Positions 1-63,337 of a DNA stretch of 64,000 nt are shown here, one piece after another. Each line of letters opens with the position of its first letter. Positions within the stretch are counted from its first letter, which is position 1. This DNA is from Bacillota bacterium. Its GTDB lineage: Bacteria; Bacillota; Clostridia; Acetivibrionales; DTU013. Below the pieces are notes generated by a model, which saw only the letters and a program-made list of their open reading frames with translations, had not been told where the DNA came from and searched no databases. The stretch is from NCBI GenBank assembly GCA_023426125.1, contig JAFABI010000029.1, positions 5,701 through 69,700 of the forward strand, in the 5' to 3' direction. A program made the translations under genes and the position numbers.

Positions 1-4
1 AGCA

Positions 5-4737: not shown

Positions 4738-4752
4738 CCGGAAGGCATTCAA

Positions 4753-5936: not shown

Positions 5937-5995
5937 GAAATCACCTCAAACCTTAGACCGGGTAAATCTGGAAAAAGTTCCGGGCACCCCGGGTG

Positions 5996-7072: not shown

Positions 7073-7399
7073 TGCTTGTCCTCCTGAAATACTGAGTACT
7101 GCAAATTAAAGTACGCGTACCAGTTTTATACTCAACCGGAGTTATTAATACTGTAGCAAAACAAACCTTGACCTATCGGCATTTATGCGCCTTCCGGAAA
7201 TGGTGCGGACGCTTCGTAAGTACTATTTCCGGAAGGATAAATAAAAATGCTTCACTGTAGTATTATATGAAAAAAATCAATAATCATTAAATTCTTTACA
7301 GCATAATTTGTTGGCCCCTCGCAATAATTATTTTGATATGCTATAATCGGATTGGTAATATGCAGGAAAGCATATCAAAGAGGTGGAATTTTGGATCTT

Positions 7400-8074: not shown

Positions 8075-8282
8075 GGACAATGGCAATACTTTAACAGCGA
8101 TTGTATTACAGCAAAAATTTCATTTATTCGCCCTGCGGATGCATCGCCGACGTCCTGATGCAGTATTTCCTCATGGATAGATTGGTGTTTTTGCCGGTGT
8201 ATTTGTGGTAATAAGTGTAGTAAATGTTACATAAAATATAACTTGCACGGAATTGTACGGATGGACCAATGGGGGTGGACAA

Positions 8283-9563: not shown

Positions 9564-10681
9564 CAAATACCATGGGCCTGATACTGACAGGCTGGAAAAA
9601 ACATAAGCTGAAAGACCTTTCAACCATCCGGTCAAGCTCGGCGATCCCGGTAGGAGGGAAATACAGAGCAATCGATTTCGTGCTTTCCAACATGGTCAAT
9701 TCCGGAATAACCAATGTGGGAGTAATGACGCAGTACAGCTTCCGCTCCCTGATGGATCACCTTGGCTCGGGCAAGGAATGGGATCTGGACAGAAGATACG
9801 ACGGACTTTTCATCTTTCCGCCTTCTCTGGCAGGAGATGATACGGGATGGTACAAAGGCAGCGCCGACGCCATGTATAACAATCTTTCCTTCCTGAAACG
9901 CAGCAATGAGGATTATGTAGTTATCGCCCAGGGGAATGGGATCTATAAAGTGCTTTTTGACGATATGCTGAATTTCCATATGGAAAGCAATGCGGATATT
10001 ACGTTGGCATACAGAGACATGGGCGACCTGCCCAGGGATGAACTATCCCAGCTGGGAGTGGTGAAAGTTTCGGAGGACCACCGTATCACCGATTTACAGG
10101 AAAAACCGCAAAATCCGGAGACAGTTTTTGGCTCCATGGGAATCTATATTATTAAGCGGGAGCTTTTGATTTCCCTGCTGGAAGAGTGCATTGCCCATGG
10201 AAATTATGATTTTGTAAAGGATATCCTGATCCGGAAGCTGGATAAGCTCGGCATATACGGCTACAAGTTCAACGGCTACTGGAGAGGCTTCTCTACCATA
10301 CAGATGTACTACAGGTGCAATATGGAACTGCTTGACCCTGAAATCAGAAGGCAGCTTTTTATTGAAAACGGGAAAATCTATACCAAGGTAAAGGACGAAG
10401 CTCCTACAAAATACAACGAAGAAGCTGCTGCCGTCAATTCCATTATTGCCGATGGGTGCATCATCGAAGGGACAGTTGAGAACAGTGTACTTTTCCGGGG
10501 TGTGACCGTATGCAAAGGTGCGGTGATCAGAAACAGTATCGTCATGCAGGGCTCTCTGATCGGCGAGAATTCCCAGCTGGATTATGCCATCCTCGACAAG
10601 AACGTTGTGATGTCCAGAGGCAGAAACCTGAAGGGAGAACCCAGCTGGCCCATTGTCATCGGCAAGAATGCGGTTGTCTGA
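9554..10681 (+). CDS. glgD: Glucose-1-phosphate adenylyltransferase regulatory subunit
   Basis: GlgC paralogue lacking the GGxGxRL motif ([35 protein letters not shown]). Translationally coupled to glgC, with an alternative ATG at 9560 forming an ATGA overlap. Confidence 0.9.
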
Positions 10682-10779
10682 TGTGCCGGCGTTGATATGG
10701 AAAATAATACTGCTGTTGAGCATAAAGTATAACATTGGTATAATGGTATAGAATTTGGTGGGAAAGAAGGAGTGCGGAC

Positions 10780-11163
10780 ATGTTAAGTGAATCCAACTTC
10801 ATTGCTAGAATGTCGGGGAGGAAGGCAGGAAGCTACTATATCGACTATACGGGCGCTTACAAAATCATTGAAATAGCCAAAGTGGCGGGCATGGAGCCCT
10901 CTGCAGTCAAGGAGATCTATCAGAAAAACGGCGGAGTTTATGACGATTCCCAGGATGTGTATTACTTCAATAGCCTTGATGCGGCCAATAAGGTCATTTC
11001 CGAAATCTGCGGCAATGTCCGAATCGACCGGAAAGGCAGGCTGATTTTCCTTACGGAAGCGGAAATCGAGTACTTGAGAAAAGCGCTGATCAATGAAGGA
11101 GGCAACAACATACATATCAGCAGCAAGGTGAAAGACGCCATATTCAAGAAATTGAACGGATAG
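10780..11163 (+). CDS. Hypothetical protein (127 aa)
   Basis: Clean ORF behind a GGAG RBS. No motif recognised. Confidence 0.45.
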   Translation: MLSESNFIARMSGRKAGSYYIDYTGAYKIIEIAKVAGMEPSAVKEIYQKNGGVYDDSQDVYYFNSLDAANKVISEICGNVRIDRKGRLIFLTEAEIEYLRKALINEGGNNIHISSKVKDAIFKKLNG

Positions 11164-11308
11164 ATGCCATCCTGTTGGACCATGTAAAATTATTAAATTT
11201 TATATAATATTCAATATTGTAAATGGACAGGTTTTAATATAATATAGTTTTTATAAATACCACTTTACCAGAATGAAGTGGAAGAAACTACAAGGAGGAT
11301 GAAAAGGA

Positions 11309-12109
11309 ATGAGAATATTAATGAAAAAGAATCTTTTTGCACTGGCTGCTCTGGCAGTTCTTGCCGCATTTGTTTTCACCAGCTGTAACGCAAGCAATTC
11401 CAATGTACTGCGCGTAGGTGTGGATGATAGTTATCCGCCTATGGAGTATAAGGATGCGGATGGAAAAACCACAATAGGCTTCGACGTTGATGTGGCAAAT
11501 GAATTGGCGAAACGACTCGGGAAAACAAAAGTAGAGTTTGTATCAAATGATTGGACCGGTATTTTTGCAGCGCTGGAAACAGATAAGTTCGACGTAATTA
11601 TTTCTTCAGTAAGTATAAATGAAGAAAGGTTGGCAGAGCACTCCCTGACAGATCCGTATATAGCAAATAAGCTTGTTATTGTCACCAACAAGACAAATAC
11701 TGAAATTAAAGCGCCTGAAGATTTGAAAGAAAAGAAAGTCGGAGTTCAGGCAGGTACGACCTCCGAAGATTTTTGTACAGAGCTGATTGAAAAAGGGAAT
11801 ATGGCGGAAGCAAATCTTGGCACCTATCCTTTGGTGACACAGCCCTTCCTTGATCTTGATGCGGGTCGTATTGATGCAATTGTTGTCGATGTAGTGGTTG
11901 CAAAATATTATATAGCTAACAACAAGGATAAATACACTCTTGCATGGGAAAGCCCGGAAGCCGAGCCAATGGCATTCTGCTTCAAGAAGAAGGATACGGA
12001 ATTACGTGACAAGGCCAATGGGATATTAGTTGATATGCAAAATGACGGGACCATGAAAAAGATTTCCGAAAAATGGTTTGGTGAAGATGTTACAGCAAAT
12101 TTGAAGTAG
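11309..12109 (+). CDS. Polar amino-acid ABC transporter substrate-binding lipoprotein (family 3)
   Basis: Lipoprotein signal (LAAFVFTSC). Family-3 SBP hallmarks: VGVDDSYPPMEYKD, GFDVDVANELAKRLG and WTGIFAALETDKFDVIISS. Confidence 0.9.
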   Translation: MRILMKKNLFALAALAVLAAFVFTSCNASNSNVLRVGVDDSYPPMEYKDADGKTTIGFDVDVANELAKRLGKTKVEFVSNDWTGIFAALETDKFDVIISSVSINEERLAEHSLTDPYIANKLVIVTNKTNTEIKAPEDLKEKKVGVQAGTTSEDFCTELIEKGNMAEANLGTYPLVTQPFLDLDAGRIDAIVVDVVVAKYYIANNKDKYTLAWESPEAEPMAFCFKKKDTELRDKANGILVDMQNDGTMKKISEKWFGEDVTANLK

Positions 12110-12209
12110 AAGAAATTGATTTTGTGATATGTCTGATGTGCCGGGCGACCTGGGGTTTCCCGGCACATTGGAAGATAAAGATATAATATAGCAGCAAATA
12201 TATGGGGAG

Positions 12210-12875
12210 TTGTTAAGCTTGGATTTTATCAACAGATTATTGGGTTATATGCCTGCACTACTTGAGGGTGCAATGTTTACTGTTTTACTTACAATAATTT
12301 CTGTATTTTTTGGAGCTATATTAGGCTTATTTTTGGCACTCGGCCGATTGGCAAAAAATCAGATTTTGGATCGAATTTGTTGGTTCTACATTTGGCTTTT
12401 CAGAGGGACACCGCTTTTAATGCAGTTGTTTTTTATTTATTACGCTTTGCCAATGATCTATCCGCCTTTAACCATGGCAAAATTTCCAGCTGCATTAGTA
12501 GCATTAAGTCTTAATTCTGCGGCATACCTTGCAGAAATAATCAGAGCCGCCATACAATCGATAGATAAAGGTCAGATGGAAGCAGCCAAAGCACTTGGTA
12601 TGAGTTATGGACAAGCTATGAAGCGAATTGTAATTCCGCAATCATACAGGCGGTTGATACCTCCTGTCGGCAATGAGCTTATCGCATTGCTTAAAGATTC
12701 TTCACTGGTTGCAATGATTGCTATGACAGAATTAATGAAAGTCACAAATCAAATTTCAACAAGGGAGTCCAATGCGGTGATTTATATTCCTGCCGCGGTA
12801 ATATATCTTTGCTTGACAACTTTGTTTACTTATATCTTTGATAAGCTTGAAAAGAAATATTCCATATATGAATAG
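12210..12875 (+). CDS. Amino-acid ABC transporter permease (His/Glu/Gln/Arg/opine family)
   Basis: EAA-loop region ([21 protein letters not shown]) and five or more TM segments. TTG start behind a GGGGAG RBS. Confidence 0.9.
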
Positions 12876-12891
12876 GGAGGTGCGTCCTGAG

Positions 12892-13647
12892 ATGATGGTA
12901 AAAATGGAAAACGTGTGCAAATCCTTCGGAGCCCTCCAGGTGTTGAAAGGGATAAACTTTGAGGTTGCCAGGGGCGAGGTGGTGTGTATCATCGGACCCA
13001 GCGGTTCAGGAAAAAGCACCCTGCTCAGGTGTCTGAACCATCTTGAAAGGATTACCAGCGGCAGAGTGTTTATCGATGGTGAAATGATTGATGAAAGAGC
13101 TGACGGTAAAGACCAGCTCAAAATATCGCAAAAAAAGATTTCCGAGATTTGTACCGAACTGGGGATGGTGTTCCAGCGGTTCAACCTGTTTCCCCACATG
13201 ACGGCGCTTCAAAACGTCATGGAAGCGCCTGTTACGGTTAAAAAGGTGCCGAAGCAGGAGGCGATGGAATATGCCGTCGGGCTTCTTAAGAAGGTAGGTC
13301 TGGAAGATAAGAAGGACGAATTCCCCTCCAGGCTTTCCGGCGGGCAGCAGCAGAGGGTGGCGATCGCCAGGGCTCTTGCAATGAAGCCCCAGATAATGCT
13401 TTTTGACGAGCCTACTTCAGCCCTTGACCCCGAGCTTGTGGGTGAAGTGCTTGAAGTTATGAAGGATCTTGCCAGAGAGGGTATGACCATGCTGGTGGTT
13501 ACGCATGAGATGGGCTTTGCCCGCGAAGTGGGCAGCAGGGTCATCTTTATGGACAACGGCGAGATCAAGGAAGAAGGCACGCCGGACGCAATATTTACAA
13601 ATCCGAAAAACGAAAGAACCAGGTCGTTCCTGCAAAAAGTGCTGTGA
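12892..13647 (+). CDS. Amino-acid ABC transporter ATP-binding protein
   Basis: Walker [10 protein letters not shown], signature [15 protein letters not shown] and Walker [13 protein letters not shown]. Start trimmed to the ATG at 12892, after the AGGGAGG RBS that follows the permease stop. Confidence 0.95.
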
Positions 13648-13696
13648 CCGGCATGGGGACAACTTCGCCTGGCGCAACGGGTACAGGGCGGATAAA

Positions 13697-14590
13697 ATGA
13701 CAAGGAAACTTAAGGCAGATTTGCTGCTTTTGATTATAACAATCGTTTGGGGATTATCTTTTCCATTAATGAAAATTATCCTCGATTTTATGCCGTCGTT
13801 TGCATATCTTTCTTTGCGGTTTCTATTGGCGGCTTTTTTTCTGGCTGTGATTTTTCACAGGAACTTCAGGCATTTCAGCAAAAGAACCCTGCTGTTTGGC
13901 TGCATTATCGGAATTTTTATGTTTGCCGGTATGGCTTTGCAGGTAAATGGACTGTACACCACAAGCGCCTCCAATTCGGGGTTCATTACAGGCCTTAATG
14001 TTGTTATTGTACCTTTGATTTCTGCGGTGCTTTTGAAAAAGAAGCCGGACAGAGCTTCATTTATCGGCATCATTGTTGCATTTGCCGGGTTGTTTTTCCT
14101 TTCCGGCGGTCTAAACATGAATTTCAACCTGGGCGACTTTCTGACGTTCTTATGCTCTATATGCTGGGCTTTTCAGATTATTTTCATCGACAAATTCACT
14201 GCAAGCGAAGATGCGCCATTGTTGGCAATTATCCAGATTGGCTTCACTGGGATTGTAAGCACGGGCGTCTGGATGAGTACCGGTTTTCAACCGTTTGAGT
14301 TCAATTCAACCGTTATCATTGTAATAGCGGTAACCGCAGTGTTGGGGACCGCACTGGCCTTCGGTGGACAGACCATCGCTCAGAAGGACACTTCACCTAC
14401 GCACACGGCTTTGATTTTTACAGCCGAGCCGGTATTTGCAGCCATATTTGCCATGATTATACCCAACATGGCTGGTGAAACCGAAAAGTTGGGCGTAACA
14501 ACAATCATAGGGTGCGTTTTGATTCTAGCCGGTATGCTGGTATCGGAATTTAAACTGGGACAGCGGAGGAAATATGAAACCGCGCTGTAG
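13697..14590 (+). CDS. DMT-superfamily (EamA) transporter
   Basis: Ten predicted TM helices and two EamA-like halves. Start trimmed to the ATG at 13697, because the upstream part of the ORF overlaps the ABC ATPase. Confidence 0.85.
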   Translation: MTRKLKADLLLLIITIVWGLSFPLMKIILDFMPSFAYLSLRFLLAAFFLAVIFHRNFRHFSKRTLLFGCIIGIFMFAGMALQVNGLYTTSASNSGFITGLNVVIVPLISAVLLKKKPDRASFIGIIVAFAGLFFLSGGLNMNFNLGDFLTFLCSICWAFQIIFIDKFTASEDAPLLAIIQIGFTGIVSTGVWMSTGFQPFEFNSTVIIVIAVTAVLGTALAFGGQTIAQKDTSPTHTALIFTAEPVFAAIFAMIIPNMAGETEKLGVTTIIGCVLILAGMLVSEFKLGQRRKYETAL

Positions 14591-16199: not shown

Positions 16200-17612
16200 A
16201 TGCTTATCCATGTAGTCAAGCCGGGGGAAACACTCTGGCAAATCGCCGCTTCTTACCGTGTTCCGGTGAATCGGATGATGGACGTCAATCAGTTGCCGAA
16301 TCCCAATGTGATACTGGTTGGCCAGTCGTTGGTCATACCCACGGAGGACTTCTATTATACCGTAAAGCAAGGCGATACCTTATGGAGGATCGCGCAGGCC
16401 AATGGTACGACTGTTCAAGTTATCCAGCAGGCGAATCAAATCACAGACCCTTCAAGGATTTACCCCGGACAGGTGTTGTATATCCCTGCTGTCAGGCACA
16501 CGGTGGAGAGGGGCCAGACACTCTGGCAGATAGCGCAAAGATATGGTGTTTCCCTGGACAGACTGCTAAAGGTGAACTTTATTGAGAACCCAAATCTTAT
16601 CTATCCGGGTACAGTGCTGGTAATTCCGCGAAAAACCAGACCGGCCATCGAGGTGAACGGGTATATCTATCAACTGGGAGCGGATGCAGTCCCTATCGTT
16701 AACGAGGATGGCAGATATTTAACGTATCTGAGCCCATTTGCATATAGAATCCGGGAGAATGGCGGGCTGCAGGCCATACCGGATGGGCCTGCCGTAAATG
16801 CGGCCCTTGCGAACAATGTCATCCCCATGATGTGCATAACGAACTTTACCGTAACGGAGCTGGGGGAAAATCTGGCGCATATCATCCTTGCAAATCCGGC
16901 GGTTCAAGACAACCTCCTTAGAAACATATCGGGCGTGATGAACGAAAGACGCTACCGGGGGCTCAACATTGATTTTGAGAATGTGCTTCCGGCTGACCGC
17001 GAGCTTTATAACCGGTTTTTGCAGCGTGCGACAGACGCCATGCATTCCCAGGGCTTCTTTATTTCAACGGCGCTGGCTCCAAAAACCAGTGCGCAGCAAA
17101 TGGGGCTGTTATATGAAGCCCATGACTATGCGGCTCATGGAAGAATTGTCGATTTTGTAATTTTGATGACCTATGAATGGGGGTATCGGCGTGGCCCGCC
17201 ACAAGCCATTTCACCATTGAATGAAATCATCCGGGTGCTGAATTACGCCGTTTCGGTCATACCTGCAAATAAGATATTCTTCGGATTCCAATTGTATGCC
17301 CGTGATTGGCTGCTTCCCCACGTCCAGGGACAGGAAGCCGAGACCTTCGACATGCAGGAGGCTGTTGCCCGTGCTGTGGCGCATGGTGTGGCCATCCAAT
17401 ACAATAAAACAAGCGAGTCGCCGTTTTTCCGCTATACCGATGCACAGGGAAGAATGCATGAGGTATGGTTTGAAGACGCGCGCAGCGCCCAGGCAAAATT
17501 CGATGTAGTCAAGGCTTATAATTTAAGAGGCATCAGCTATTGGGCATTGGGCTATCCGTTTCCGCAAAATTGGGTTTTGCTGGATGATAATTTTACCATC
17601 CGGAAGCTTTAA
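16200..17612 (+). CDS. yaaH: Spore cortex-lytic type GH18 with three N-terminal LysM domains (YaaH/SleL-like)
   Basis: Three LysM repeats (VKPGETLWQIA.., VKQGDTLWRIA.., VERGQTLWQIA..) followed by a GH18 domain with GLNIDFE. Confidence 0.85.
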   Translation: MLIHVVKPGETLWQIAASYRVPVNRMMDVNQLPNPNVILVGQSLVIPTEDFYYTVKQGDTLWRIAQANGTTVQVIQQANQITDPSRIYPGQVLYIPAVRHTVERGQTLWQIAQRYGVSLDRLLKVNFIENPNLIYPGTVLVIPRKTRPAIEVNGYIYQLGADAVPIVNEDGRYLTYLSPFAYRIRENGGLQAIPDGPAVNAALANNVIPMMCITNFTVTELGENLAHIILANPAVQDNLLRNISGVMNERRYRGLNIDFENVLPADRELYNRFLQRATDAMHSQGFFISTALAPKTSAQQMGLLYEAHDYAAHGRIVDFVILMTYEWGYRRGPPQAISPLNEIIRVLNYAVSVIPANKIFFGFQLYARDWLLPHVQGQEAETFDMQEAVARAVAHGVAIQYNKTSESPFFRYTDAQGRMHEVWFEDARSAQAKFDVVKAYNLRGISYWALGYPFPQNWVLLDDNFTIRKL

Positions 17613-17637
17613 TAGGGAAGAGCGGGCAAGAGTGTCC

Positions 17638-17692
17638 TATAGGGTCGCGCATTGCGCGTCCGCATATGTGGGGATGGCCGATGGCCATCTCC
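17638..17692. repeat. Family A double-hairpin repeat, minimal copy in inverted orientation
   Basis: TATAGGGTCGCGCATTGCGCGTCCGC (17638-17663) is the reverse complement of H2. GGGGATGGCCGATGGCCATCTCC (17670-17692) is the reverse complement of H1. It sits just after the yaaH stop codon. Confidence 0.55.
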
Positions 17693-17799
17693 ATAAAATT
17701 GTACTGGCATAATTCAATTCTGAAGTTGGCATAATGTAATTTTGCGAAATCGCCGTCCGTATGGTAGAATTTATGTATTATTGAATTAAGGGGTGGCCT

Positions 17800-20700
17800 A
17801 TGAGCCTGAGGCTGATATACGGACGGGCCGGCAGCGGGAAAACGCACTATTGCCTGGAAAGCATAAAAGACAGCCTGAAAAATAAGCAAAACAAAATCCT
17901 TTTGATTGTGCCGGAGCAGTTTTCCCTGCAGGCGGAGCGAAGCTTGAGCAAGGTTGCCGGAAAAGGAGGCATGCTGCGGGCGGAGGTCCTTAGCTTCCGC
18001 CGTATGGCTTACAGGGTTTTCAACGAAGTCGGGGGCATTGCGCGCCGCCACATCAATACTGCAGGAAAAAGCATGATCCTTTTCCGGATTATGGACAGGC
18101 TTAAGGACGAGCTGTGCGTATTTTCGGGAGCCGCAAGGCAAAAGGGCTTTGCCGGCGCCATGTCCAAAATGATTGCCGAATTCAAACGATATGATCTGAC
18201 CCCCGAAATGCTGAAGGAGTCTTTGGACGGACTTAACGAAGCCGGGAGCCTGAAGCACAAGCTGCAGGACCTGAGCCTGATTTACTCCGGCTTTGAAGCT
18301 GCAATTCATCAAAGATACATGGATTCTGACGATGATCTCACAGAGCTGTTTAAAAAGCTGGATAAATCCATACAGTTTGATCATGCCGAAATCTGGATCG
18401 ACGAGTTCTCCGGGTTTACGCCCCAGGAATTCAAGGTGATCCAGAAGCTTCTGGTCAAAGCGGAAAGCGTCAACATATGCCTGTGCACTGACTGCCTTGA
18501 GACCGACCTGGATACAATCCCCGGAATGGTTTTCGTACCTGTAAGGAACACAGCGGACAGGCTTAAACGGCTGGCGCAGCAGGCAAATGTAAAAATTGAC
18601 CTCCCGCTCAGGCTTGGACAAAGCGGCGGCAATAGGCAGGCCACTCCGGGCAGGTTCAGTTCAAACCCTGCACTGGGGCATCTTGAGCGCAGCCTGTTTT
18701 CTTACCCGTACCGCAAATATGCCGACACCACGGAGAGCATTTCCATTTTTGCCGCCGCCAATATGTTTTCAGAAGTGGAGGCCGCAGCCAGGGAAGCGAT
18801 AAAGCTGTGCAGGGAGAGCGGTTTGCGTTACAGGGATATCGCAGTGACCTGCAGGGATCTCGACAATTATGAAAAAGTGATTTCGGTCATATTCAAAGAA
18901 TATGGTATTCCCTGCTTTATTGATAAGAAGAGGGATATTACGGGCCATCCGTTGATTATACTTATCCTTTCCGTATTTGAGATTTTTAAGACCAGCTGGT
19001 CCTATGAAGCGGTTTTCCGTTATATCAAGTCGGGACTGTCCAACATTGACCGTGAGAACTCCGATGTTCTGGAGAACTATGTCCTGGCCTGCGGCATAAA
19101 AGGAAGCAGATGGATACAGGAGCAGGAATGGCCTGTCCGGCTGGAATTCGGCAGAAATAAAAAAGAAAGCGGCAGCTATGAACAGCAGTCCATGGAAGCG
19201 GTCAACAGGGCAAGAATGCAATTGGCCGGTCCCCTGGCGGAATTCCGCCGGAAAACCAGAGGCCGCAGGAATGCAACCGAGATATGCACTGCCCTGTACG
19301 ACCTTTTGTGCGAAATTGAGGCGCCTCAGAGGATAGACGGCCTGATCTGCTATTTCTCAGCCTCCGGAGAGCTGGATAAGGCAAACGAATACAGGCAGGT
19401 ATGGAATATTGCCATGGAGGTGCTTACGCAGATTGTTGAAGTCTCCGGCGATGATCTGATGGGAATCGGCCGGTTCAGCGATATCCTTGCCGCAGGTTTC
19501 GAAGAATATTCCATCGGGCTTATCCCCCCGGCGCTGGACCAGGTGCTGGTGGGGAGTGTCGAAAGGTCCAAGAGCCATGAAATCAAGGCGTTATTCATTC
19601 TCGGGGTAAATGAGGGAGTTTTTCCTGCGGCGGTAAATGAGGAAGGGATACTGACCGACGCAGAGAGAGGAAGGCTGGAAAGCCTGGGGATCCAGTTGGC
19701 GAAGGATTCCAGATACAGGCTGCTGGAGGAAAGATTCCTTGTATATACCTCCCTTGCCACGCCTTCCGGATATTTACGGTTGAGCTTCCCGGCTGCGGAC
19801 AGGGATGGGAGAGCCTTACGGCCGTCAAGGCTGATTTCGGACATAAAAAGGATTTTTCCGGCAATCCGTGAGACAAGCGATATATCCGGCATAAAAACGG
19901 AGGAGGATGAAATCGGGCTTATTGCCGCGCCCGTACCCGCCTTCAACGAGCTTGTGGCCAGCGTCAGAAGACGGTTTGAAGGCTTTGAGACAAGCCCGTT
20001 ATGGCAGGAGGTTTTCCAATGGTTTCAAAACCATGGCGCCTGGCGGGAGCGATGCGGTACAATGCTGGCAGGCCTGGGATATTCCAACCAGCCGGAACGG
20101 ATGAATACCGCCAGAGCGGCAAGTCTGTATGGGAATCCGCTGAATACAAGCATTTCAAGGCTGGAAACCTATGCTTCCTGTCCTTTTTCCTACTATGTCC
20201 GGTATGGTCTGAAAGCGGAGGAGAGAAGCATATTCCGGCTGAATCCTGTGGATGTGGGGACTTTCATGCATAACGTCCTGGATGAGTTTTCACGGCTGGT
20301 GGCCGCAAAGGGAATAAGCTGGCGTACTCTTGAAAAGGATTGGTGCGGCTCGCAGGTTTCGGCCATTATCGACGGGATGCTGGAAAAAACCTCGGGGACG
20401 ATTTTTAACAGCTCCAAACGCTATGTCTATCTTTCCGCACGACTGAAACGGATCGTGACAAGGGCCGTGCTTACAATTTCCGAGCACATGAAGCGCAGCG
20501 GCTTTGAGCCTGTCGGCTATGAGGTGGAATTTTCAGAATACGGACAGTATCCTCCCATCGTTATCCGGCTGCCTTCCGGTGATAGCTTAAGCCTTACAGG
20601 CAGAATTGACAGGATCGACTCCATGACTAACGGAGACGGTACCTACCTTCGGATCATTGATTACAAATCCGGCAGCAAAGCCTTAAAGCTGGCCGATGTA

Positions 20701-56048: not shown

Positions 56049-56125
56049 GTGCCCATAGCTCAGCTGGATAGAGCAACGGATTTCTAATCCGTTGGCCGGG
56101 GGTTCGAATCCCTCTGGGCACGCCA
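56049..56125 (+). tRNA. tRNA-Arg (anticodon UCU), CCA encoded
   Basis: Acceptor GTGCCCA/TGGGCAC, D arm GCTC..GAGC, anticodon stem ACGGA/TCCGT with loop TTTCTAA, and T loop GGTTCGAATCC. Confidence 0.9.
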
Positions 56126-56249: not shown

Positions 56250-57509
56250 TTAATTAGCTTTGTTGTCTTCCATTTTCTCTTGATTTTTCGAAGGATACAG
56301 CTTGGACATTTTATCGACAGATGATTGATCTCCTCTTCTAAACTTATGGCCATATCTTCGCATTAGCATTGTTGTGTCGGCATGCCCCAAGCGCTCAGCA
56401 ACATTTACAAGGTTTTCGCCAGCATCTATCAAGTAGGAAGCGGAGGTATGCCGCAAACCGTGCAGGGGCAGAGGAGGCAGTTTATGTTTTTTTAAGAATT
56501 TATTGAGCCTTGCGGAATAACTATAAGTGTACATTTGTGAACCGTCCGGATCTATGAACACTAAACCGGTGTTTACCCAAATGTTTGCACATTCCGCCTT
56601 CTGGATCTTCTGCTTATGTTGTAGATCGGAAAGCATATCCATAACGGCCTCAGGAAGCCCTATGAAACGTATAGATGTCTCATTCTTCGGATACTCCTTT
56701 ATAAATGATCCTTTATGAGGCAGGTATTGGGATACTTGATTAATAAATATTGTTCCTTCTTCAAAGTCCACATTGCACCAAGGCAATCCCATTGCTTCAC
56801 CGAGTCTGCATCCAGATGCTAACAATAAATGAATAGCTGTCTTGAATTGAAAATCCTTTTCCTCTTCAAGGGCAGCTTTAAGGGATTCGATTTCATCATC
56901 TGTATAAGATATCGCTTCCTGTTTATCTGGTGAAGGCACGTCCGCGCCTAACAAGGGGTTTACTTTTATGTTACCTTTTTTCAATGCTCTGTTTATCAAT
57001 ATACTTATTACCCTGTGGCAATGGTAAACTGTGGCCTCCGTTAAAGTGTATTCTTTTGTCCGAGTAGTTCCGTCCTTCTTAGTATAGGTTTTTTTCTGGG
57101 GCTTCCTGAATTCGTTATAGGCTTCGTCTAAAATATCTGAGGTTATATCTTCCAGTTTATAATTGCCGATAGCAGGAATGATGTGGAGCTTCAATAATTC
57201 TTCATATCGATATACTGTCTTGGGCGCCAGCTTTTTGTATTCAGGGCTTTCCCTCCACTTCTCCACAAGGTTGATAAAGCTGGTATGTGTGGGTTTTTTG
57301 ACTTCGCCTTTTTTGACTTCGGATTCAAAAACTGCCAACTGCTTTTCAGCCAACTTGTCTATATCTTCGGGTGTGGCGTCTTTTTTGTGCTTGATCACGA
57401 CTGTCTTATAAAACTTCCGGCGCTTCCCTTTGCCGTCAAAGCCATGGGAAACCTCAAATTGGTATTTATCTATTGTCCCTGGAATCAGTTTCTTGTAGCC
57501 GCCTGCCAT
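56250..57509 (-). CDS. Tyrosine site-specific integrase (phage integrase family)
   Basis: C-terminal catalytic residues in ASGCRLGEAMGL (Arg), HGLRHTSASY (His-x-x-Arg) and LGHADTTMLMRRYGH (His..Tyr). N-terminal SAM-like arm/core-binding region. Confidence 0.9.
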   Translation of the reverse strand: MAGGYKKLIPGTIDKYQFEVSHGFDGKGKRRKFYKTVVIKHKKDATPEDIDKLAEKQLAVFESEVKKGEVKKPTHTSFINLVEKWRESPEYKKLAPKTVYRYEELLKLHIIPAIGNYKLEDITSDILDEAYNEFRKPQKKTYTKKDGTTRTKEYTLTEATVYHCHRVISILINRALKKGNIKVNPLLGADVPSPDKQEAISYTDDEIESLKAALEEEKDFQFKTAIHLLLASGCRLGEAMGLPWCNVDFEEGTIFINQVSQYLPHKGSFIKEYPKNETSIRFIGLPEAVMDMLSDLQHKQKIQKAECANIWVNTGLVFIDPDGSQMYTYSYSARLNKFLKKHKLPPLPLHGLRHTSASYLIDAGENLVNVAERLGHADTTMLMRRYGHKFRRGDQSSVDKMSKLYPSKNQEKMEDNKAN

Positions 57510-57525: not shown

Positions 57526-58494
57526 TCATTTATTCCTTTTAATAGATTCTAGCCAGTTAATATATTCTTCTTCGCTTTTAACACCGTTTTTTATGTCTGA
57601 TTTCCATTGTTTTGAATGGGTTTTAAAACTTTCAAAGTCATTTTTATACTGTATGATATCTGGATTTCTCCTTAGTAACATTTGTTTTTGCATATAGATA
57701 GCTCGATACAAACCAGAAGCTTCATCGTTTTTTAGTTTCTTTCTATATGCATATAATGCTCCAGCTTCCTTGCAGGTCTTAGAAGTATCTTGAGGGCTTG
57801 TTCTATCACAATAAATTGCATCCACTCTGTTGAAAGGTATAAAGTAATTTCCACAATTATCGCACTTTTTTATTATGTACCCTTCATTAAAAATGCATTG
57901 TAATGAAGCCATGCATAACTCAAGTAAATTACTATAATCGCTCGAATAAAAGAAGGCTGAATTTTCCCTGTTTTTTTCATAGGTATTAAATAAATCCTTA
58001 ATATTATCTTCGCTTTTAGTTTTGAAGGAATTACCCTTTTGCGCATTAAACCCTATTGACTGTGCCAATGGCTTTACTTCTATAAGTTCATACGATGACA
58101 AAACAATTAGGTATTCTATTGAGCAATATTTAGAATTCTTTGAACAAAGATCAAGGAAATACTTAATAGACCAAAGGCTATTATAGTTGAGATCGGTAAT
58201 TAGTGCTGTTGAATATTCATTATAAAGAAAACTTTTATAAAATTCGGCATCTTCATAATATTTATTGCCAATTTCTTCAACCGAATTCTTTTTAAGATTT
58301 CTTTTGTAATCCCCCATAATATCCAGCGTTTCCATTATTTTGAATAGTGTATAGCCTAAAGGATATTCCTTTTCAATAGTAGTTGTTTCATGGCTTTTAT
58401 AACGAATTATAGAATAATAGTAATATTCGATGTTTGAATTCTTTGTATGGTTGTATGTTTTAGATTCAATAATTTTTTTGGCGTTATCCATCAA
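57526..58494 (-). CDS. AT-rich orphan protein (322 aa) with a C-terminal Cys-cluster/zinc-ribbon-like helical domain; possibly the family catalogued as DUF6076
   Basis: CDNCGNYFIPFNRVDAIYCDR..TSKTCKEAG followed by a basic helical tail. The Asn/Tyr/Lys-rich N-terminal ~200 aa has no motif. It lies 16 nt upstream of int on the same strand. Confidence 0.6.
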   Translation of the reverse strand: MMDNAKKIIESKTYNHTKNSNIEYYYYSIIRYKSHETTTIEKEYPLGYTLFKIMETLDIMGDYKRNLKKNSVEEIGNKYYEDAEFYKSFLYNEYSTALITDLNYNSLWSIKYFLDLCSKNSKYCSIEYLIVLSSYELIEVKPLAQSIGFNAQKGNSFKTKSEDNIKDLFNTYEKNRENSAFFYSSDYSNLLELCMASLQCIFNEGYIIKKCDNCGNYFIPFNRVDAIYCDRTSPQDTSKTCKEAGALYAYRKKLKNDEASGLYRAIYMQKQMLLRRNPDIIQYKNDFESFKTHSKQWKSDIKNGVKSEEEYINWLESIKRNK

Positions 58495-58506
58495 TGCACC
58501 TCGGTG

Positions 58507-58587
58507 TTATCAATTGATAAAATAATTAATAATGATCTACATGTTATCAATAAAATAGAAATGATATTGCGTGATAACATGTTATCA
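58507..58587. promoter_or_regulatory. Divergent control region with TTATCA/TGATAA palindromic operator candidates
   Basis: Perfect 14-bp palindrome TTATCAATTGATAA (58507-58520), a half-site ACATGTTATCA (58539-58549), and a perfect 16-bp palindrome TGATAACATGTTATCA (58572-58587). Confidence 0.5.
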
Positions 58588-58646
58588 TTTATAATTTTAT
58601 TATAGTCATTATTAACATTAAAATCAATAGAGGGGAGGAAATTATT

Positions 58647-58841
58647 TTGAGGAATCAAGAGACACGGATAGAAATTAAGGAGAGCGGCATACGTTACTGG
58701 ATGATAGCGGAAAAACTAGGTATCTCCGATGTAACATTTAGCCGCAGGTTGAGAAAAGAGCTTCCTACCGTTGAAAAGTTAAAGATAAGGCAGGTAATAT
58801 CTGAAATCAAGGAGGCTTCAAAGCATGCCACAGTTGTTTGA
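58647..58841 (+). CDS. Small helix-turn-helix DNA-binding protein (Cro/Str-like position)
   Basis: 64 aa. IRYWMIAEKLGISDVTFSRRLRK looks like an HTH. TTG start 8 nt after a GGGGAGG RBS. Confidence 0.55.
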   Translation: MRNQETRIEIKESGIRYWMIAEKLGISDVTFSRRLRKELPTVEKLKIRQVISEIKEASKHATVV

Positions 58842-59049
58842 CAAAAAAGAGCTCATAGAATACATGGGCGGCAAACTAACAAATGACACAGCTGGCAGAT
58901 TAACCCGAGAAGGTAAAATTCCAGTAGTGAAATTTCCAGGAATCCGCCGGTACTTCTATGAGAAGGAAGCAATAGACAGGTGGCTAGAAGGTCTTCAGCA
59001 TGGCACACAGGATAAAACACTACGACTTGCAAAGTTAGGGGAAAAATGA
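58825..59049 (+). CDS. Excisionase-type (MerR-superfamily) HTH protein
   Basis: ELIEYMG..TAGRLTREGKIPVVKFPGIRRYFYEKEAIDRWL matches the Xis/AlpA-like HTH_17 pattern. Overlaps both neighbouring genes. Confidence 0.65.
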   Translation: MPQLFDKKELIEYMGGKLTNDTAGRLTREGKIPVVKFPGIRRYFYEKEAIDRWLEGLQHGTQDKTLRLAKLGEK

Positions 59050-59603
59050 GGACAGAGGAAGCAAAGGAACTTTTAAAAAATTCCATAGAAATGAAGGACG
59101 TTCTTCTGGCACTGAATATAAACCTTCAGGGCCGTGGGAATAAAATAAGATGCTTTGTACATAACGACAACCACCCTTCTATGAAAATATTCCGTAACCG
59201 GGTATGCTGCTTTAGCTGCCAGTACAACGAGGATATATTCGGTGTCACGGCAAAGTTCCTGAACCTATCTTTTCCTGATTCTGTAAAATGGCTGGCTTCA
59301 AACTTTATGCCAGGCTTGCAGCTTGACAGCCATGTTGACCATGAAGCCATAAAGCAGGCAAAGCTTCAAAGGGCCATAGCGGAAGGGCTGCAAATATGGC
59401 GCAATAATGCATATGACCGGCTTTGCACTCTATACAGGGCAACGCAGGAAGCAAAAAGGAAATTAAGTCCTGGATCCGTGGGGTATTTTGTAGCCTGCCA
59501 GTTTGAAGGGCCACTTGACTATTTGACAGACATTTTGATCTATGGAAAAGAATCAGATTGGCTTCAGGTTTACCGACAGCTGGGGGAGGCGTGGGGCTTA
59601 TGA
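59046..59603 (+). CDS. CHC2 (DnaG-type) zinc-finger protein
   Basis: KIRCFVHNDNHPSMKIFRNRVCCFSCQYNEDIFG is a CHC2 zinc-finger motif. ATGA overlap with the next gene. Confidence 0.75.
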   Translation: MRTEEAKELLKNSIEMKDVLLALNINLQGRGNKIRCFVHNDNHPSMKIFRNRVCCFSCQYNEDIFGVTAKFLNLSFPDSVKWLASNFMPGLQLDSHVDHEAIKQAKLQRAIAEGLQIWRNNAYDRLCTLYRATQEAKRKLSPGSVGYFVACQFEGPLDYLTDILIYGKESDWLQVYRQLGEAWGL

Positions 59604-61066
59604 GTAAGGTATATGAAGCATTGACAGATGCTGAAATGGAAAGTTTTGCAGAGATCGGGGAGCGCCAATTGGCTCCGCCTACGAAGCAATTCAAATTATC
59701 CGAACTTGGCAACGCCGAAAGACTTGTTGCAAGACATGGTAACGATATTCGATATTGTCACACTTGGAATAAATGGTTGGTATGGACGGGGATACATTGG
59801 AAAATTGACGATACCGGAGAAGTTGAGCGCAGGGCAAAGGATACGGTTAGGAGTATGTACGCAGAAGCTGCACAGATAGCAGACGAAGATCATAGGGCTG
59901 CACTTGCCAAACATGCAGCGAGAAGCGAAAGCAATAGGGCTATTGCTGCAATGATTGAGCTTGCAAAGTCTGAACCCGGTATTCCGGTAACTTCGGATAC
60001 GATGGATTCTGACGTATGGCTATTAAATTGCAAAAATGGAACCCTGGATCTGAGAACCGGAAAACTGAAAACACATGATAGAAAAGACTTCATAACGAAA
60101 CTTATATCAGTTGAATATGATCCCATAGCTGATTGCGTGGAATGGATGCAGTTCCTTAATAGGATTATGGACGGTAAGCAGGATTTGATTACGTTCCTGC
60201 AGAGGGCCATAGGTTACTCCTTAACAGGCAGTACCAGAGAACAGTGTCTATTTATTTTGTATGGAAACGGTGCGAACGGTAAGTCAGTATTGGTTAATGC
60301 TATTAGCAATTTGCTTTGTGAATATGCTCAGCAAACGCCAACTGATACATTAATGGCAAAGGATACAAGTGGTATAAGTAACGATATTGCCCGATTGAAA
60401 GGTAGTCGGTTTGTTGTGGCTTCTGAGGTTGAGGAAGGAAAGCGCATGGCTGAAAGCCTTATAAAATCTATGACAGGTGGCGAAAAGTTGACGGCACGAT
60501 TTATGAGAGCGGAATACTTTGAGTTTGATCCGACTTTTAAGTTGTGGATTTCAAGTAATCACAAGCCTGTAATAAAAGGGACCGATACGGGGATCTGGAG
60601 AAGGATTAAATTGATACCATTCACAGTGACTATACCGCCAGAGGAAAGAGATAAAAGCTTATCAGAAAAGCTAAGAGCTAAATTACCCGGTATACTTGCC
60701 TGGGCTGTAGAAGGCTGCCAGGAATGGCTTAGAGGTGGACTTGGGGAACCGGAAGAGGTAAAGGCTGCAACGGACGGTTACAAAAATGAGATGGATGTTA
60801 TATCAAGGTTTATATCTGATTGCTGCACAGTAAATACAAGCCAAACAACCAGATCACAGAAGCTTTATAAGACATATGTGGATTGGTGTAAGCAAAACGG
60901 TGAATATGAATTATCTCAGACAAAATTTAGCCTCAGGTTAGTTGAGAAGGGATTTACAAAGGAATCCACAAGGGCATGTGTCATGTGGCACAATATTGCA
61001 ATATTAGAGGAATCCGAGGAAGATGACAACCCGTTTATCAATAAAAAGTGTGGAGGGTTGGGGTAG
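59600..61066 (+). CDS. Phage/plasmid primase-helicase, P4/D5 family (D5_N plus SF3-type NTPase)
   Basis: Walker A ILYGNGANGKS and Walker B-like RFVVASEVEEG. Also IKSMTGGEKLTARFMRAEYFEF, FKLWISSNHKP and RRIKLIPF, typical of P4-family primase C-terminal domains. Confidence 0.85.
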   Translation: MSKVYEALTDAEMESFAEIGERQLAPPTKQFKLSELGNAERLVARHGNDIRYCHTWNKWLVWTGIHWKIDDTGEVERRAKDTVRSMYAEAAQIADEDHRAALAKHAARSESNRAIAAMIELAKSEPGIPVTSDTMDSDVWLLNCKNGTLDLRTGKLKTHDRKDFITKLISVEYDPIADCVEWMQFLNRIMDGKQDLITFLQRAIGYSLTGSTREQCLFILYGNGANGKSVLVNAISNLLCEYAQQTPTDTLMAKDTSGISNDIARLKGSRFVVASEVEEGKRMAESLIKSMTGGEKLTARFMRAEYFEFDPTFKLWISSNHKPVIKGTDTGIWRRIKLIPFTVTIPPEERDKSLSEKLRAKLPGILAWAVEGCQEWLRGGLGEPEEVKAATDGYKNEMDVISRFISDCCTVNTSQTTRSQKLYKTYVDWCKQNGEYELSQTKFSLRLVEKGFTKESTRACVMWHNIAILEESEEDDNPFINKKCGGLG

Positions 61067-61174
61067 TGTGGAGGGTTGCGGATACTTTTCCGGTATAAGC
61101 TCTTATGTATTTATATTTTAAGTTTATATGGAAAAAGCCTCCACAACCCTCCACAATATATAAACCCTCCACAG
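61047..61174. repeat. Putative replication origin: iterons flanking an AT-rich core
   Basis: AGTGTGGAGGGTTG occurs twice in direct orientation (61047-61060 and 61065-61078). Next comes an AT-rich stretch (TTATGTATTTATATTTTAAGTTTATATGG). Then come inverted copies CAACCCTCCACA (61144-61155) and AAACCCTCCACA (61162-61173), plus a partial CCTCCACA at 61138. Confidence 0.65.
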
Positions 61175-62458: not shown

Positions 62459-62669
62459 AGTCGAGAGGCTTCGATCGCTTACAAAGGAGGCCAAACAGCT
62501 AAGGGCTAAAGGCCAATATTTGAATGCAGACAAATTGGAGCCTGAGATTAGAAGCTTAAAAAAGGATTTGGGAATAAAAACCGAGCCCAAGAAATCGACT
62601 ACAAGAGCAGGTAATGTAGGGGAGTTCAAAAAGGAATTATTGAAGAGATTGGAGAGGTGCAAAAAATGA
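62412..62669 (+). CDS. Island orphan ORF (85 aa, very basic, coiled-coil-like)
   Basis: ATG after GAGGTGAGG. Overlaps the upstream ORF end. ATGA coupling to the next ORF. Confidence 0.35.
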   Translation: MGIMSAENRRQTQRPKVERLRSLTKEAKQLRAKGQYLNADKLEPEIRSLKKDLGIKTEPKKSTTRAGNVGEFKKELLKRLERCKK

Positions 62670-63337
62670 AATTAATATTCAAAGCCGAAGAGAAGGAAAA
62701 AGTAGCAAGAGAGGAACAAGCTAAAAGGGAAAGCGCAAGAAAGGCATGGTTCAAGCACCAGGAGGAACTGAACAAACCCAAGGAATTCTATATTCCCGGA
62801 GGCGCATGGGCTTCATTTCTGGATGTCTTGAACAATGGGGAAATAACGCGCATATACCAGAGTGATATTCCCGGAGGCGCATGGTTTATACATGAACAGG
62901 TGAAGGCGGCCAATATATTCCTAAAACTGGTGATAAGGGATAGGGGCGCTTTAGAGAATCTGATTGTTGACGAGTTTGAATGGAGTCCTAACAACATTCC
63001 TTTATCCCTTCCGGATGCTGATACAGAAGCAGTATTGAAGAAGGAAGCCGGCAAACTGGGACTTGACTATGAAACATATCTGAGAGCAATATTCCACACC
63101 CGGGTTACTGAGCTTGAACAGGACATGCGACAAAGGGAAGAGAGGCGGCAGGCAGACGCGTGGGATAATCGATCAGAAAAAATTACAGGATATCTCAAAG
63201 CAGATTTAAGAAAAAAGCTTGAGGCTAAGTACGGTCAAGCTGTGTATGATAACTGGTTCGCTCCAGGCCGAAAAATCTTTACGCATTTTGATATGCTTAT
63301 AAAGGCAGCTGAAGAGTATCTTGGCAAGAGGGAATGA
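62666..63337 (+). CDS. Island orphan ORF (223 aa) with a duplicated IPGGAW motif
   Basis: ATG at 62666 follows GGAGAGGTG. Charged helical N- and C-termini flank a region containing two copies of IPGGAW. Confidence 0.5.
   Translation: MKLIFKAEEKEKVAREEQAKRESARKAWFKHQEELNKPKEFYIPGGAWASFLDVLNNGEITRIYQSDIPGGAWFIHEQVKAANIFLKLVIRDRGALENLIVDEFEWSPNNIPLSLPDADTEAVLKKEAGKLGLDYETYLRAIFHTRVTELEQDMRQREERRQADAWDNRSEKITGYLKADLRKKLEAKYGQAVYDNWFAPGRKIFTHFDMLIKAAEEYLGKRE

Follow-up and report, generated by a model that had tools for sequence, protein, structure and literature searches.

To our knowledge, the repressors that silence satellites, integrative elements (ICE and IME) and prophages are nearly always helix-turn-helix (HTH) proteins. 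Stl, the repressor of the SaPI/PICI islands, binds operators in the stl-str intergenic region, represses the rightward operon and is released by a helper-phage protein. NrdR is a bacterial repressor of another build, with a C4 zinc ribbon in place of an HTH, a separate ATP-cone sensor and regularly spaced tandem boxes as its sites. The gene considered here lies in a mobile element on a Clostridial contig (the 64,000-nt stretch that was analysed is called the window) and encodes a protein of DUF6076, a large family that has no assigned function and is found, in mobile elements of gut Clostridia, at the place normally taken by the cI-type repressor. The DUF6076 protein occupies that slot and has operator-like repeats of its own; it is therefore probably a new zinc-binding, non-HTH mobile-element switch regulator.

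The resemblance to Stl is one of layout. The DUF6076 gene adjoins int and is divergent from genes for a Cro/Str-like HTH, xis and a primase-replicase (Table 1), the element that carries it measures roughly 15 kb and has TerS but not capsid genes, and the protein is bipartite, with one conserved and one fast-diverging module. On the other hand, DUF6076 lacks an N-terminal HTH and resembles Stl detectably neither in sequence nor in fold. Its polarity is also reversed: the variable module comes first, at the N-terminus, and the presumed binding module last.

The host element (14,480 bp, inserted in tRNA-Arg) comprises int, the DUF6076 gene, the divergent small-HTH/xis/primase operon and TerS. The second copy of its 46-bp att repeat is outside the window, at a distance of 14,480 bp (positions 17026-17071 of locus L042). 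No capsid, portal, tail or large-terminase family was recognised among the scannable ORFs of the element, which also has many small ORFs without assignment. Judged by its genes, the element appears satellite-like, with the content that defines PICI-like elements: an integrase, att repeats, its own primase-replicase, a small terminase, a length of about 10-20 kb and no structural genes.

Table 1. Features of the switch region and its surroundings (window coordinates; positions relative to the ATG refer to the DUF6076 start codon)
Feature	Position	Strand	Remarks
attL	56080..56125	+	46-bp direct repeat, 3' end of tRNA-Arg(TCT)
Tyrosine integrase (int)	56250..57509	-	16-nt gap to DUF6076, own Shine-Dalgarno sequence, no terminator between
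DUF6076 gene, candidate switch regulator	57526..58491	-	321 aa from ATG 58491; stop codon counted in
C-terminal conserved domain, residues 201-321	57529..57891	-	C4 zinc knuckles, then three basic helices
N-terminal part, residues 1-200	57892..58491	-	acidic, pI 5.6; poorly conserved
Site 3, GATAAC	58506..58511	-	about -20 from ATG, directly 5' of the DUF6076 Shine-Dalgarno sequence
Site 2, GATAAC	58543..58548	-	about -57 from ATG
Site 1, GATAAC	58581..58586	-	about -95 from ATG; inside perfect 16-nt palindrome TGATAACATGTTATCA (58572-58587)
Putative rightward small-HTH/xis/primase promoter	58567..58595	+	-35 TTGCGT, 17-nt spacer containing site 1, -10 TATAAT
Predicted leftward DUF6076-int promoter	58599..58627	-	-35 TTGATT, 17 nt, -10 TATAAT; 10/12 consensus matches
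Small HTH protein, Cro/Str-like	58647..58841	+	64 aa, phrog_17740; opens divergent operon
HTH_17 excisionase-like protein	58825..59049	+
Replication module	59046..61066	+	CHC2 zinc-ribbon protein and primase-helicase
CHC2 zinc-ribbon protein	59046-59603	+
D5-type primase-helicase	59600-61066 (as called)	+	D5_N/DUF5906/Pox_D5

The ORF of the candidate regulator (57526..58494, minus strand) is real, as the initial annotation had proposed, but the 322 residues given to it there become 321, ATG 58491 being the better start: GAGGTG stands 5 nt upstream, public gene calls begin at the same codon, and an identical protein with this start (P0001) is encoded on 4-7 public contigs. The location beside int and opposite the HTH-xis-primase operon was also correctly described. 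The Shine-Dalgarno sequence of int (GAAGGAG) directly follows the DUF6076 stop codon, and a terminator-like hairpin is found past int (56232-56212); int is probably co-transcribed with DUF6076.

The position of DUF6076 is a general property of the elements that carry it. In about 20 distinct elements it comes first among the genes on the int side, divergent from an operon of HTH/xis/replication or relaxase genes, and this synteny holds though the DUF6076 proteins are as low as about 25-35% identical. Genes for the small HTH and HTH_17 are often found nearby. What fills the place of DUF6076 when it is missing is seen in 65 sister loci, fetched through the small HTH, lacking DUF6076 and having a divergent ORF, whose slot proteins were typed by Pfam: 52 have an HTH_3/cI-type protein in the slot, which in 12 cases matches Phage_CI_repr too. 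(The small HTHs of DUF6076-negative loci are 42-56% identical to that of the window; a search of phages with the small HTH returned a single record.) The surmise that this is a master-repressor slot, made from one sequence, is thus borne out across related elements.

Comparison with cI/XRE (HTH_3) repressors, including ImmR of ICEBs1, accordingly starts from the equivalence of slots and extends to back-to-back promoters, repeated operators and apparent autoregulation. DUF6076 differs in having no HTH_3 domain, and its putative operators, instead of forming paired palindromes, repeat in one orientation every 37-38 bp. It also differs from the ImmR-ImmA pair, in that no adjacent ImmA/Peptidase_M78 partner is encoded in the window (no such gene lies between 56250 and 58646); an HTH_3 and M78 pair is found downstream of DUF6076 only in the phage contig L019.

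The DUF6076 protein matches Pfam DUF6076 (PF19553) over residues 175-269 with 55.8 bits (E = 6e-15; gathering threshold 23.5 bits), so that a family assignment originally offered as a possibility is correct. The Pfam model covers the C-terminal half only, and most homologues align to 35-49% of the query, at its C-terminal end. Designation of the gene as an orphan does not stand: the domain is matched by all 35 close homologues and by 27 of 27 aligned relatives, and a profile search collects 3,500 clusters (50% identity, E <= 1e-3). Scans with the DUF6076 alignment yielded 6 loci in genomes and 1 in viral sequences. A search of the literature for DUF6076/PF19553 and for zinc master repressors of Clostridia satellites turned up nothing relevant.

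The division of the protein into two parts is evident in both charge and conservation. The C-terminal 120 residues have a pI of 9.0-9.8 and the N-terminal part a pI of 4.4-5.8 in 27 of 27 members; column identity is 0.53-0.73 in the C-terminal domain and averages 0.22-0.34 in the N-terminal part. The Cys cluster singled out in the initial annotation is real, C210, C213, C228 and C240 being invariant in 27 homologues, in which the only other invariant residues are N212, F217, R275 and W313 and no catalytic motif is conserved. Structure models are confident (pLDDT 82, and 91 for the C-terminal domain), and the AF2 model predicts a three-stranded sheet and helices for the N-terminal part. The C-terminal domain may be the nucleic-acid-binding module, and the N-terminal part a sensor or oligomerisation module.

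That the protein has no recognisable HTH was rightly noted: no Pfam HTH family is matched at E <= 1 by the DUF6076 protein or 27 relatives, and no known DNA-binding fold was found for it. The profile and Foldseek searches suggested with the first description identified the Pfam family but no fold in the PDB (the lowest E was 0.4 with the whole model and 1.5 with the C-terminal model). A marginal match of the whole model in BFVD (E = 3e-3), to an entry labelled 'Rrn7 zinc finger', is probably to a mislabelled member of the DUF6076 family. For the DUF6076 protein, no PDB entry was matched by profile at E <= 10, and PHROGs and NCBIfam gave no meaningful match; no solved structure was found for the family.

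NrdR is a precedent for a zinc-ribbon repressor paired with a separate sensor domain, but it has no sequence or Pfam similarity to DUF6076, its domain order is reversed, and it is chromosomal and housekeeping, unlike DUF6076, which resides in a mobile element. The zf-CGNR/ABATE proteins and P2 Ogr/P4 Delta are predicted or known transcription regulators in which C4 zinc modules are likewise followed by basic residues. Two slot-equivalents (L060 and L070) end in CGNR-like tails, and their alignment with DUF6076, over the helix and the first zinc knuckle, is weak. However, hhalign gives these pairs probabilities of no more than 38% and 5%, the third and fourth Cys are spaced differently, and none of 27 DUF6076 members has a Pfam match to zf-CGNR (PF11706), Ogr_Delta or DksA/TraR; the zf-CGNR resemblance is a lead, not a relationship.

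The sequence upstream of DUF6076 contains two predicted promoters, back to back, and three GATAAC sites. An equivalent strong leftward promoter is present in all related loci. The rightward promoter was missed by a consensus scan because its -35 element matches only 3/6, and is postulated from an arrangement, TGTCAA...GATAAC...ATTATA, that is kept in 12 aligned loci. Site 1 falls within its 17-nt spacer and about at the leftward transcription start. TTGATAACA at site 2 is invariant in 12 aligned leaders, site 3 is part of the palindrome TTATCAATTGATAA (58507-58520), and a copy of the repeat proximal to the Shine-Dalgarno sequence is found in 16 of 27 loci. The sequence TGTTATCA occurs four times in 152 nt and six times in the 64-kb window, as against 2.05 expected.

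The repeats travel with the gene. In 14 upstream regions no hexamer is more enriched than GATAAC (23 observed, 1.27 expected), and the positions -95/-57/-20 and the 37-38-nt spacing recur among loci. Same-orientation GATAAC/GTTAAC sites are present at 18 of 27 DUF6076 loci and at 0 of 71 DUF6076-negative small-HTH loci (Fisher p = 2e-13, presence being scored as two or more copies of G[AT]TAAC, of which 9 of the 27 fall short), although such statistics overstate independence because the loci are phylogenetically related and chosen by similarity. A clear array is missing from the plasmid homologue (L025), L041 and L005rc. Variants of the motif (GATAAC, GTTAAC, GACAAC, GACGAC and TGTCTAC) track DUF6076 subfamilies in the same layout; TGTCTAC belongs to a distant subfamily, where the layout is equivalent. 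This operator-like array lends some circumstantial weight to the initial suggestion that the repressor is of a new type.

Whether the small HTH protein, which opens the divergent operon, or HTH_17 or a host protein might be what binds the repeats needs to be considered, since binding by DUF6076 is inferred and both HTH proteins so often neighbour it. DUF6076 would then have another core role, as an antirepressor or sensor, an integrase accessory, or a modulator that, like DksA/TraR or Ogr/Delta, binds RNA polymerase (the zinc-finger proteins Ogr of phage P2 and Delta of satellite P4 are regulators that act on the polymerase rather than on DNA). This is unlikely: the array is present at loci without the small HTH (L003, L018, L023 and L028) and in two phage contexts that have no divergent operon and neither HTH (L019 and L020), and motif variants follow the subfamilies of DUF6076, in which Ogr_Delta and DksA/TraR are not matched. 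The survey of 71 DUF6076-negative loci, whose close homologues of the small HTH come without the array, specifically disfavours the small HTH as its binder.

The repeats are strongly biased in orientation (21 sense, 4 antisense; p = 0.0009), and this bias, together with their position in a transcribed leader, would also fit recognition of RNA. On that account DUF6076 would be an autoregulator that binds three sense UUGAUAACA repeats of its leader mRNA and blocks the ribosome-binding site, leaving the divergent promoter to the small HTH. Proteins that combine zinc knuckles with basic helices are often RNA binders, every site is downstream of the predicted leftward promoter, with the last abutting the Shine-Dalgarno sequence at the 16 loci counted above, and the array persists in phage contexts that lack the divergent promoter. 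Against this, 12 aligned loci place site 1 exactly between the -35 and -10 elements of the divergent promoter, a position that is meaningful only in DNA, and the GTTAAC variant and site 1 of the window are palindromic. A structured leader RNA is ruled out (RNAalifold gives 0 pairs, Rfam no match). We regard RNA-level autoregulation as distinctly unlikely.

Sequence does not give the direction of regulation, and direct repeats upstream of or overlapping promoters also serve some activators; AlpA of Gram-negative PICIs is an activator on induction. DUF6076 might correspondingly act at the same sites to activate int or cargo, or the divergent operon on induction. However, a promoter spacer (site 1) and a Shine-Dalgarno sequence (site 3) are typical positions for occlusion, the leftward promoter should need no activation because it is already near consensus, and the equivalence of slots is with cI-type repressors. 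Activation is accordingly a very unlikely alternative to repression.

On balance we lean, with modest confidence, to the DUF6076 protein being a sequence-specific, non-HTH, zinc-ribbon repressor and autoregulator of the element's switch, which is of the lysogeny type. We infer the identity of the binder (DUF6076 itself), the nature of its target (DNA, not RNA), its repressive effect and the identity of its inducer. The basic C-terminal domain, with its C4 zinc knuckles and three helices, would recognise asymmetric WTTGATAACA sites, three of which lie in one orientation, 37-38 bp apart, between the back-to-back promoters and the DUF6076 ribosome-binding site. Occupation of site 1 would turn off the rightward promoter and silence the small-HTH/xis/primase operon; occupation of sites 1-3 in its own leader would hold down expression of DUF6076 and int. 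The acidic, fast-diverging N-terminal part may serve oligomerisation across sites, reception of an inducing signal, or both. That DUF6076 senses a helper-phage protein, as was conjectured at the outset, is speculation. A wider generalisation, which we consider doubtful, would see in DUF6076 a new class of master repressor, zinc-dependent and without an HTH, that serves Clostridial satellites, integrative mobilisable elements and some phages. The operator variants GATAAC/GTTAAC/GACAAC/TGTCTAC would then define immunity groups, and the N-terminal domain would be a Stl-like sensor whose capture by specific proteins of a helper phage or the host sets off excision and replication.

In gut and rumen Clostridia the work of a repressor appears to be done by a family of unmatched fold that numbers more than 3,000 sequence clusters. 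If so, it would provide a new DNA-recognition module, a function for a widespread DUF, a marker by which annotation could locate the switch region and the place between regulator and int where cargo is inserted, and a route to the inducers and helper phages of the hardly studied satellites of Clostridia.

DUF6076 could instead be cargo of the integrated element, a single-gene anti-phage or abortive-infection effector or some other accessory, as was also proposed at the outset; its AT-richness, third codon positions included, would fit such a role. Defence-type genes do neighbour it in some contexts (ApeA HEPN in L003-6, McrBC in phage NatCom_38182, Eco57I-type R-M and GIY-YIG in L019), and in two phages it stands beside restriction-type genes, not in a divergent switch. 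One phage homologue has a HEPN_Swt1 match (E about 1e-3), but an identity with HEPN_Swt1 is ruled out, the match being below threshold and the family lacking the R-x4-6-H motif. Defence genes vary and sit downstream, while DUF6076 is conserved as first gene beside the switch; the real cargo (ApeA HEPN, GATase, IS110, acetyltransferase) is found between DUF6076 and int and does not replace DUF6076, which is for these reasons core and not cargo. PADLOC-DB has 0 families matching the protein at E <= 1, no catalytic motif is conserved, and elsewhere the slot belongs to cI-type repressors. A role as defence cargo is disfavoured and, in our estimation, highly improbable.

The low G+C on which separate acquisition had been argued is real, though the figures required correction: the gene has 0.296 (about 30%, not 32-33%), and the chromosomal flank 0.44-0.54 (flank genes 0.46-0.48), not about 57%. 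Sliding windows give 0.26-0.31 in the gene, and the other genes of the element have 0.41-0.45. Amino-acid composition as sole cause is ruled out, GC3 being truly depressed as well (0.27, against 0.39-0.49). As proof of separate acquisition, low G+C is ruled out, and even as evidence it is weak because it is a trait of the DUF6076 family: the gene has a lower G+C than its own locus at 10 of 10 loci tested.

The DUF6076 gene lies between int and a divergent operon whose first product is a 64-aa HTH protein (the small HTH; 58647..58841, plus strand). Other occupants of this slot were surveyed in 80 genomic loci, for which the small HTH served as the only query, without reference to DUF6076. A DUF6076 match is found divergently upstream in nine; among the other loci whose divergent ORF is 90 aa or longer, the slot protein matches HTH_3 in 52 of 65 (and Phage_CI_repr too in 12 of these 52). 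The repressor-slot position assigned to the gene by the initial annotation is thus upheld, and DUF6076 therefore takes the place of the classical cI/XRE repressor in the same backbone. This is a non-orthologous replacement: the slot is the same, but DUF6076 has a predicted zinc-binding fold instead of an HTH. Two slot proteins of 280 and 364 aa (loci L060 1531-2370, L070 1271-2362 (minus strand)) match neither HTH_3 nor, clearly, DUF6076, and carry at the C-terminus a zinc tail of the form CxxC...(F/Y)C. A zf-CGNR match is seen for one of the 65 slot proteins, probably that of L060 or L070. Both proteins, with their CGNR-like tails, align weakly with the helix and first zinc knuckle of DUF6076; this is no more than a lead, and they may represent other slot occupants without an HTH, or very remote relatives of DUF6076.

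ATG 58491, with GAGGTG 5 nt 5' of it, is a likelier start than the TTG of the mechanical call and yields a 321-aa protein; several public contigs carry the identical protein as a called gene. DUF6076 (PF19553) is the only significant family match (55.8 bits; cut-off 23.5), as the initial annotation had suggested, and the absence of a recognisable HTH is confirmed. The protein is not, as first described, an orphan: a word-indexed search yields 35 homologues at E <= 1e-3, and an exhaustive profile search yields 3,500 clusters at 50% identity (2,222 of them at E <= 1e-10). The family is already catalogued in Pfam; literature searches found neither a function nor a publication for it, and a PDB search no structure.

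The C-terminal Cys cluster singled out at the outset is genuine, its four residues (C210, C213, C228 and C240, 321-aa numbering) being invariant in 27 homologues, as are N212, F217, R275 and W313. Conservation per column rises from 0.22-0.34 in residues 1-200 to 0.53-0.73 in residues 201-320. Most BLAST alignments, with identities of 50-65%, are confined to the C-terminal 35-49% of the query. Each of the 27 members combines an acidic N-terminal part (pI 4.4-5.8) with a basic C-terminal stretch of 120 residues (pI 9.0-9.8). AF2 models the whole protein at pLDDT 82 and pTM 0.71, and residues 186-321 at pLDDT 91; neither model finds a relative in a PDB fold search, a PDB sequence search with the protein is empty, and sub-threshold Pfam matches are to generic zinc-ribbon families only.

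Features of the DUF6076 protein, the divergent region and the host element (window coordinates unless contig L042 is named)
Feature	Position	Strand	Remarks
DUF6076 ORF, mechanical call	57526..58494	minus	TTG start, 322 aa
Three-stranded sheet	residues 7-44		AF2 model
Helical region	residues 47-202		AF2 model
Short strands bearing four Cys	residues 205-240		AF2 model
C-terminal helices after Cys strands			36-residue, 22-residue, then final helix; AF2 model
TGTTATCA copies	58505, 58542, 58580	plus	
TGTTATCA copy	58572	minus	
Predicted promoter facing DUF6076	-35 TTGATT 58627-22, -10 TATAAT 58604-599	minus	near-consensus
Predicted rightward promoter	-35 TTGCGT 58567-72, -10 TATAAT 58590-95	plus	
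tRNA-Gly and tRNA-Arg(TCT)	just left of int		
att repeats	56080-56125 and L042 17026-17071		46-bp exact direct repeat, 3' end of tRNA-Arg(TCT)
Leftward genes			int, DUF6076
Rightward genes, start			64-aa HTH (phrog_17740), excisionase-type HTH_17, CHC2 zinc-ribbon protein, D5_N/DUF5906/Pox_D5 primase-helicase
Next in order			six small ORFs without assignment, P27-family small terminase, DUF3467, PIN-like protein
Element right part			Mrr_cat/NA-iREase1 nuclease, two further HTH_17 genes, two small ORFs
HicA/HicB toxin-antitoxin pair	L042 17152-17748		just outside attR

The 152-nt divergent region holds four copies of TGTTATCA (the whole 64 kb has six, against 2.05 expected), and among them a perfect 16-nt palindrome, TGATAACATGTTATCA. 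In an unbiased count over 14 upstream regions GATAAC is the top hexamer (23 observed, 1.27 expected), present in 10 of them. The layout is conserved across loci: a near-consensus promoter is followed by sites 1, 2 and 3 near positions -95, -57 and -20 relative to the ATG, spaced 37-38 nt apart. On its other strand site 1 falls within the 17-nt spacer that separates a TTGACA-like -35 from a TATAAT -10. The predicted rightward -35/-10 pair must be what drives the small-HTH/xis/replication operon; only a few bases separate the -10 boxes of the two promoters, making this a compact back-to-back switch. The hexamer is predominantly in the sense orientation (21 against 4, p = 0.0009) and the last site abuts the Shine-Dalgarno sequence ('aattGATAACaaggagg'). 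Both features favor RNA-level autoregulation by DUF6076, which may occur, although the location of site 1 in a promoter spacer and the palindromic variants speak against it.

The array goes with DUF6076. It is found in DUF6076 loci that have no small HTH (L003, L018, L023, L028) and in two phage contexts that have neither of the HTHs nor a divergent operon; L019 retains 'aattGATAACgattggagg' at its Shine-Dalgarno sequence. It is present in 18 of 27 DUF6076 loci and in none of 71 small-HTH loci without DUF6076, whose small HTH proteins share 42-56% identity with that of the window (Fisher p = 2e-13, for loci that are not phylogenetically independent). Site variants follow DUF6076 subfamilies: GATAAC accompanies '...LYRxIYMQKQM...', GTTAAC '...LYRKTLSAKKM...', and GACAAC/GCAAAC '...LSRKIASAKGM...'; GACGAC occurs in a 450-aa subgroup and TGTCTAC in a distant one (L092 and L099 carry a copy at the Shine-Dalgarno sequence), with the same layout throughout. 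This is the pattern that co-evolution of regulator and operators would predict, confounded as it is by phylogeny. Alternatively, another factor may bind the sites, DUF6076 then having a different core role.

The most economical reading, which we favor with modest confidence, makes DUF6076 the regulator/repressor of the element's switch. The basic zinc-ribbon/helical C-domain would bind the repeated asymmetric sites; occupancy of site 1 would occlude the rightward promoter, and binding at sites 1-3 would limit expression of DUF6076 itself and of int. The divergent acidic N-terminal part might serve oligomerisation and/or signal reception. We infer binding from co-occurrence with the array, repression from binding and, likewise, the link to a helper phage; DUF6076 may activate instead of repress. 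What is new for DUF6076, as read from sequence and models, is that it systematically occupies the cI/Stl slot, comes with putatively cognate operator-like arrays and has a bipartite design. We lean slightly towards classing it among the master regulators of mobile elements, with a predicted non-HTH, zinc-binding fold. That it is an Stl-like sensor-repressor defining immunity groups of Clostridial satellites is a good deal more doubtful.

Contexts were gathered via exact-protein look-ups, scans of genomes, viruses and metagenomes, and annotated collections, followed by a local HMM survey. A tyrosine integrase directly adjoins DUF6076 downstream in 14 loci (L001, L007, L010, L013, L015, L016, L017, L018, L021, L029, L031, L032, L035, L040); L003-6 have an ApeA HEPN gene in between, and L023 a GATase-like gene, an IS110 transposase, an acetyltransferase and a methyltransferase. 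Divergently upstream, a small HTH and/or HTH_17 is present without exception, heading a replication operon (D5 primase, Phage_rep_org_N + IstB-like, or Phage_rep_O + DnaB), after which some loci (L005b, L023/24) have a NikA/relaxase mobilisation module. DUF6076 is thus the conserved first gene beside the switch, with variable cargo between it and int, which contradicts the initial annotation's suggestion that DUF6076 is cargo; that it is defence cargo is the least likely reading. Two phage contexts depart from this pattern: in Ruminococcus phage NatCom_38182 and on an IMG/VR contig the gene points the same way as neighbouring restriction-type genes, and on the IMG/VR contig it is followed by an HTH_3 + Peptidase_M78 pair. 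On a 5.7-kb Subdoligranulum plasmid a homologue is divergent from a MobV-like relaxase.

The gene is indeed AT-rich, down to synonymous sites (G+C 0.296; GC1/2/3 0.32/0.29/0.27), compared with the genes of the element (int 0.413, primase 0.430, others 0.41-0.45) and of the flanking chromosome (0.46-0.48, not the approximately 57% first estimated). At this locus G+C falls abruptly at either end of the gene, GC3 included, and G+C is below that of the surrounding locus in 10 of 10 loci examined, by 1-15 points. A second AT-rich patch of similar composition (0.27-0.30; L042 10500-12000, just past window position 64000) spans DUF3467, a 58-aa ORF and the PIN-like 228-aa ORF. The element is compositionally mosaic. 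Exchange of a regulator-plus-operator module between elements is plausible; it would be a shuffling of core function, not acquisition of accessory cargo.

The att copies lie 14,480 bp apart on one metagenomic contig; the repeat pair at tRNA-Arg therefore delimits an integrated element of that length, inside which the window ends (64000). None of its genes was recognised as coding for a capsid, portal, tail or large-terminase protein, and in size and content it resembles a PICI-like phage satellite. A 581-aa Mrr_cat/NA-iREase1 nuclease-like protein followed by two HTH_17 genes (L042 12928-14673, beyond the end of the window) is probably the element's real defence-type cargo. Origin-like iterons lie straight 3' of the primase-helicase stop codon (61066), at 61047-61173: two copies of TGTGGAGGGTT (61049, 61067) and three of the inverse, AACCCTCCACA-like (61135, 61145, 61163), bracket an AT-rich spacer, together forming a 53-nt imperfect inverted repeat. 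This region is probably the satellite's replication origin.

The L003-L006 element (1-13754) has four different right-hand chromosomal flanks and has therefore been recently mobile; its further genes include an Anti-Pycsar Apyc1-like gene, NUDIX and MazG-like genes, one for a Schlafen-like helicase, and a cI + Peptidase_M78 pair. In L005 a second, divergent DUF6076 gene (16695-17921, minus strand) adjoins this element, facing an HTH_17, a 641-aa ORF and a NikA/MobC/relaxase operon, with a Peptidase_C14 gene downstream; no GATAAC array is found in this tandem element. P0177, a small-HTH homologue of 57 aa, is called 'ribosomal protein L20' in one source, almost certainly wrongly. Within a 226-aa ORF (62657-63337) an exact 20-nt direct repeat, CCATGCGCCTCCGGGAATAT (minus strand; 62790-62809 and 62865-62884, 75 nt apart), encodes a repeated 'IPGGAW' peptide.
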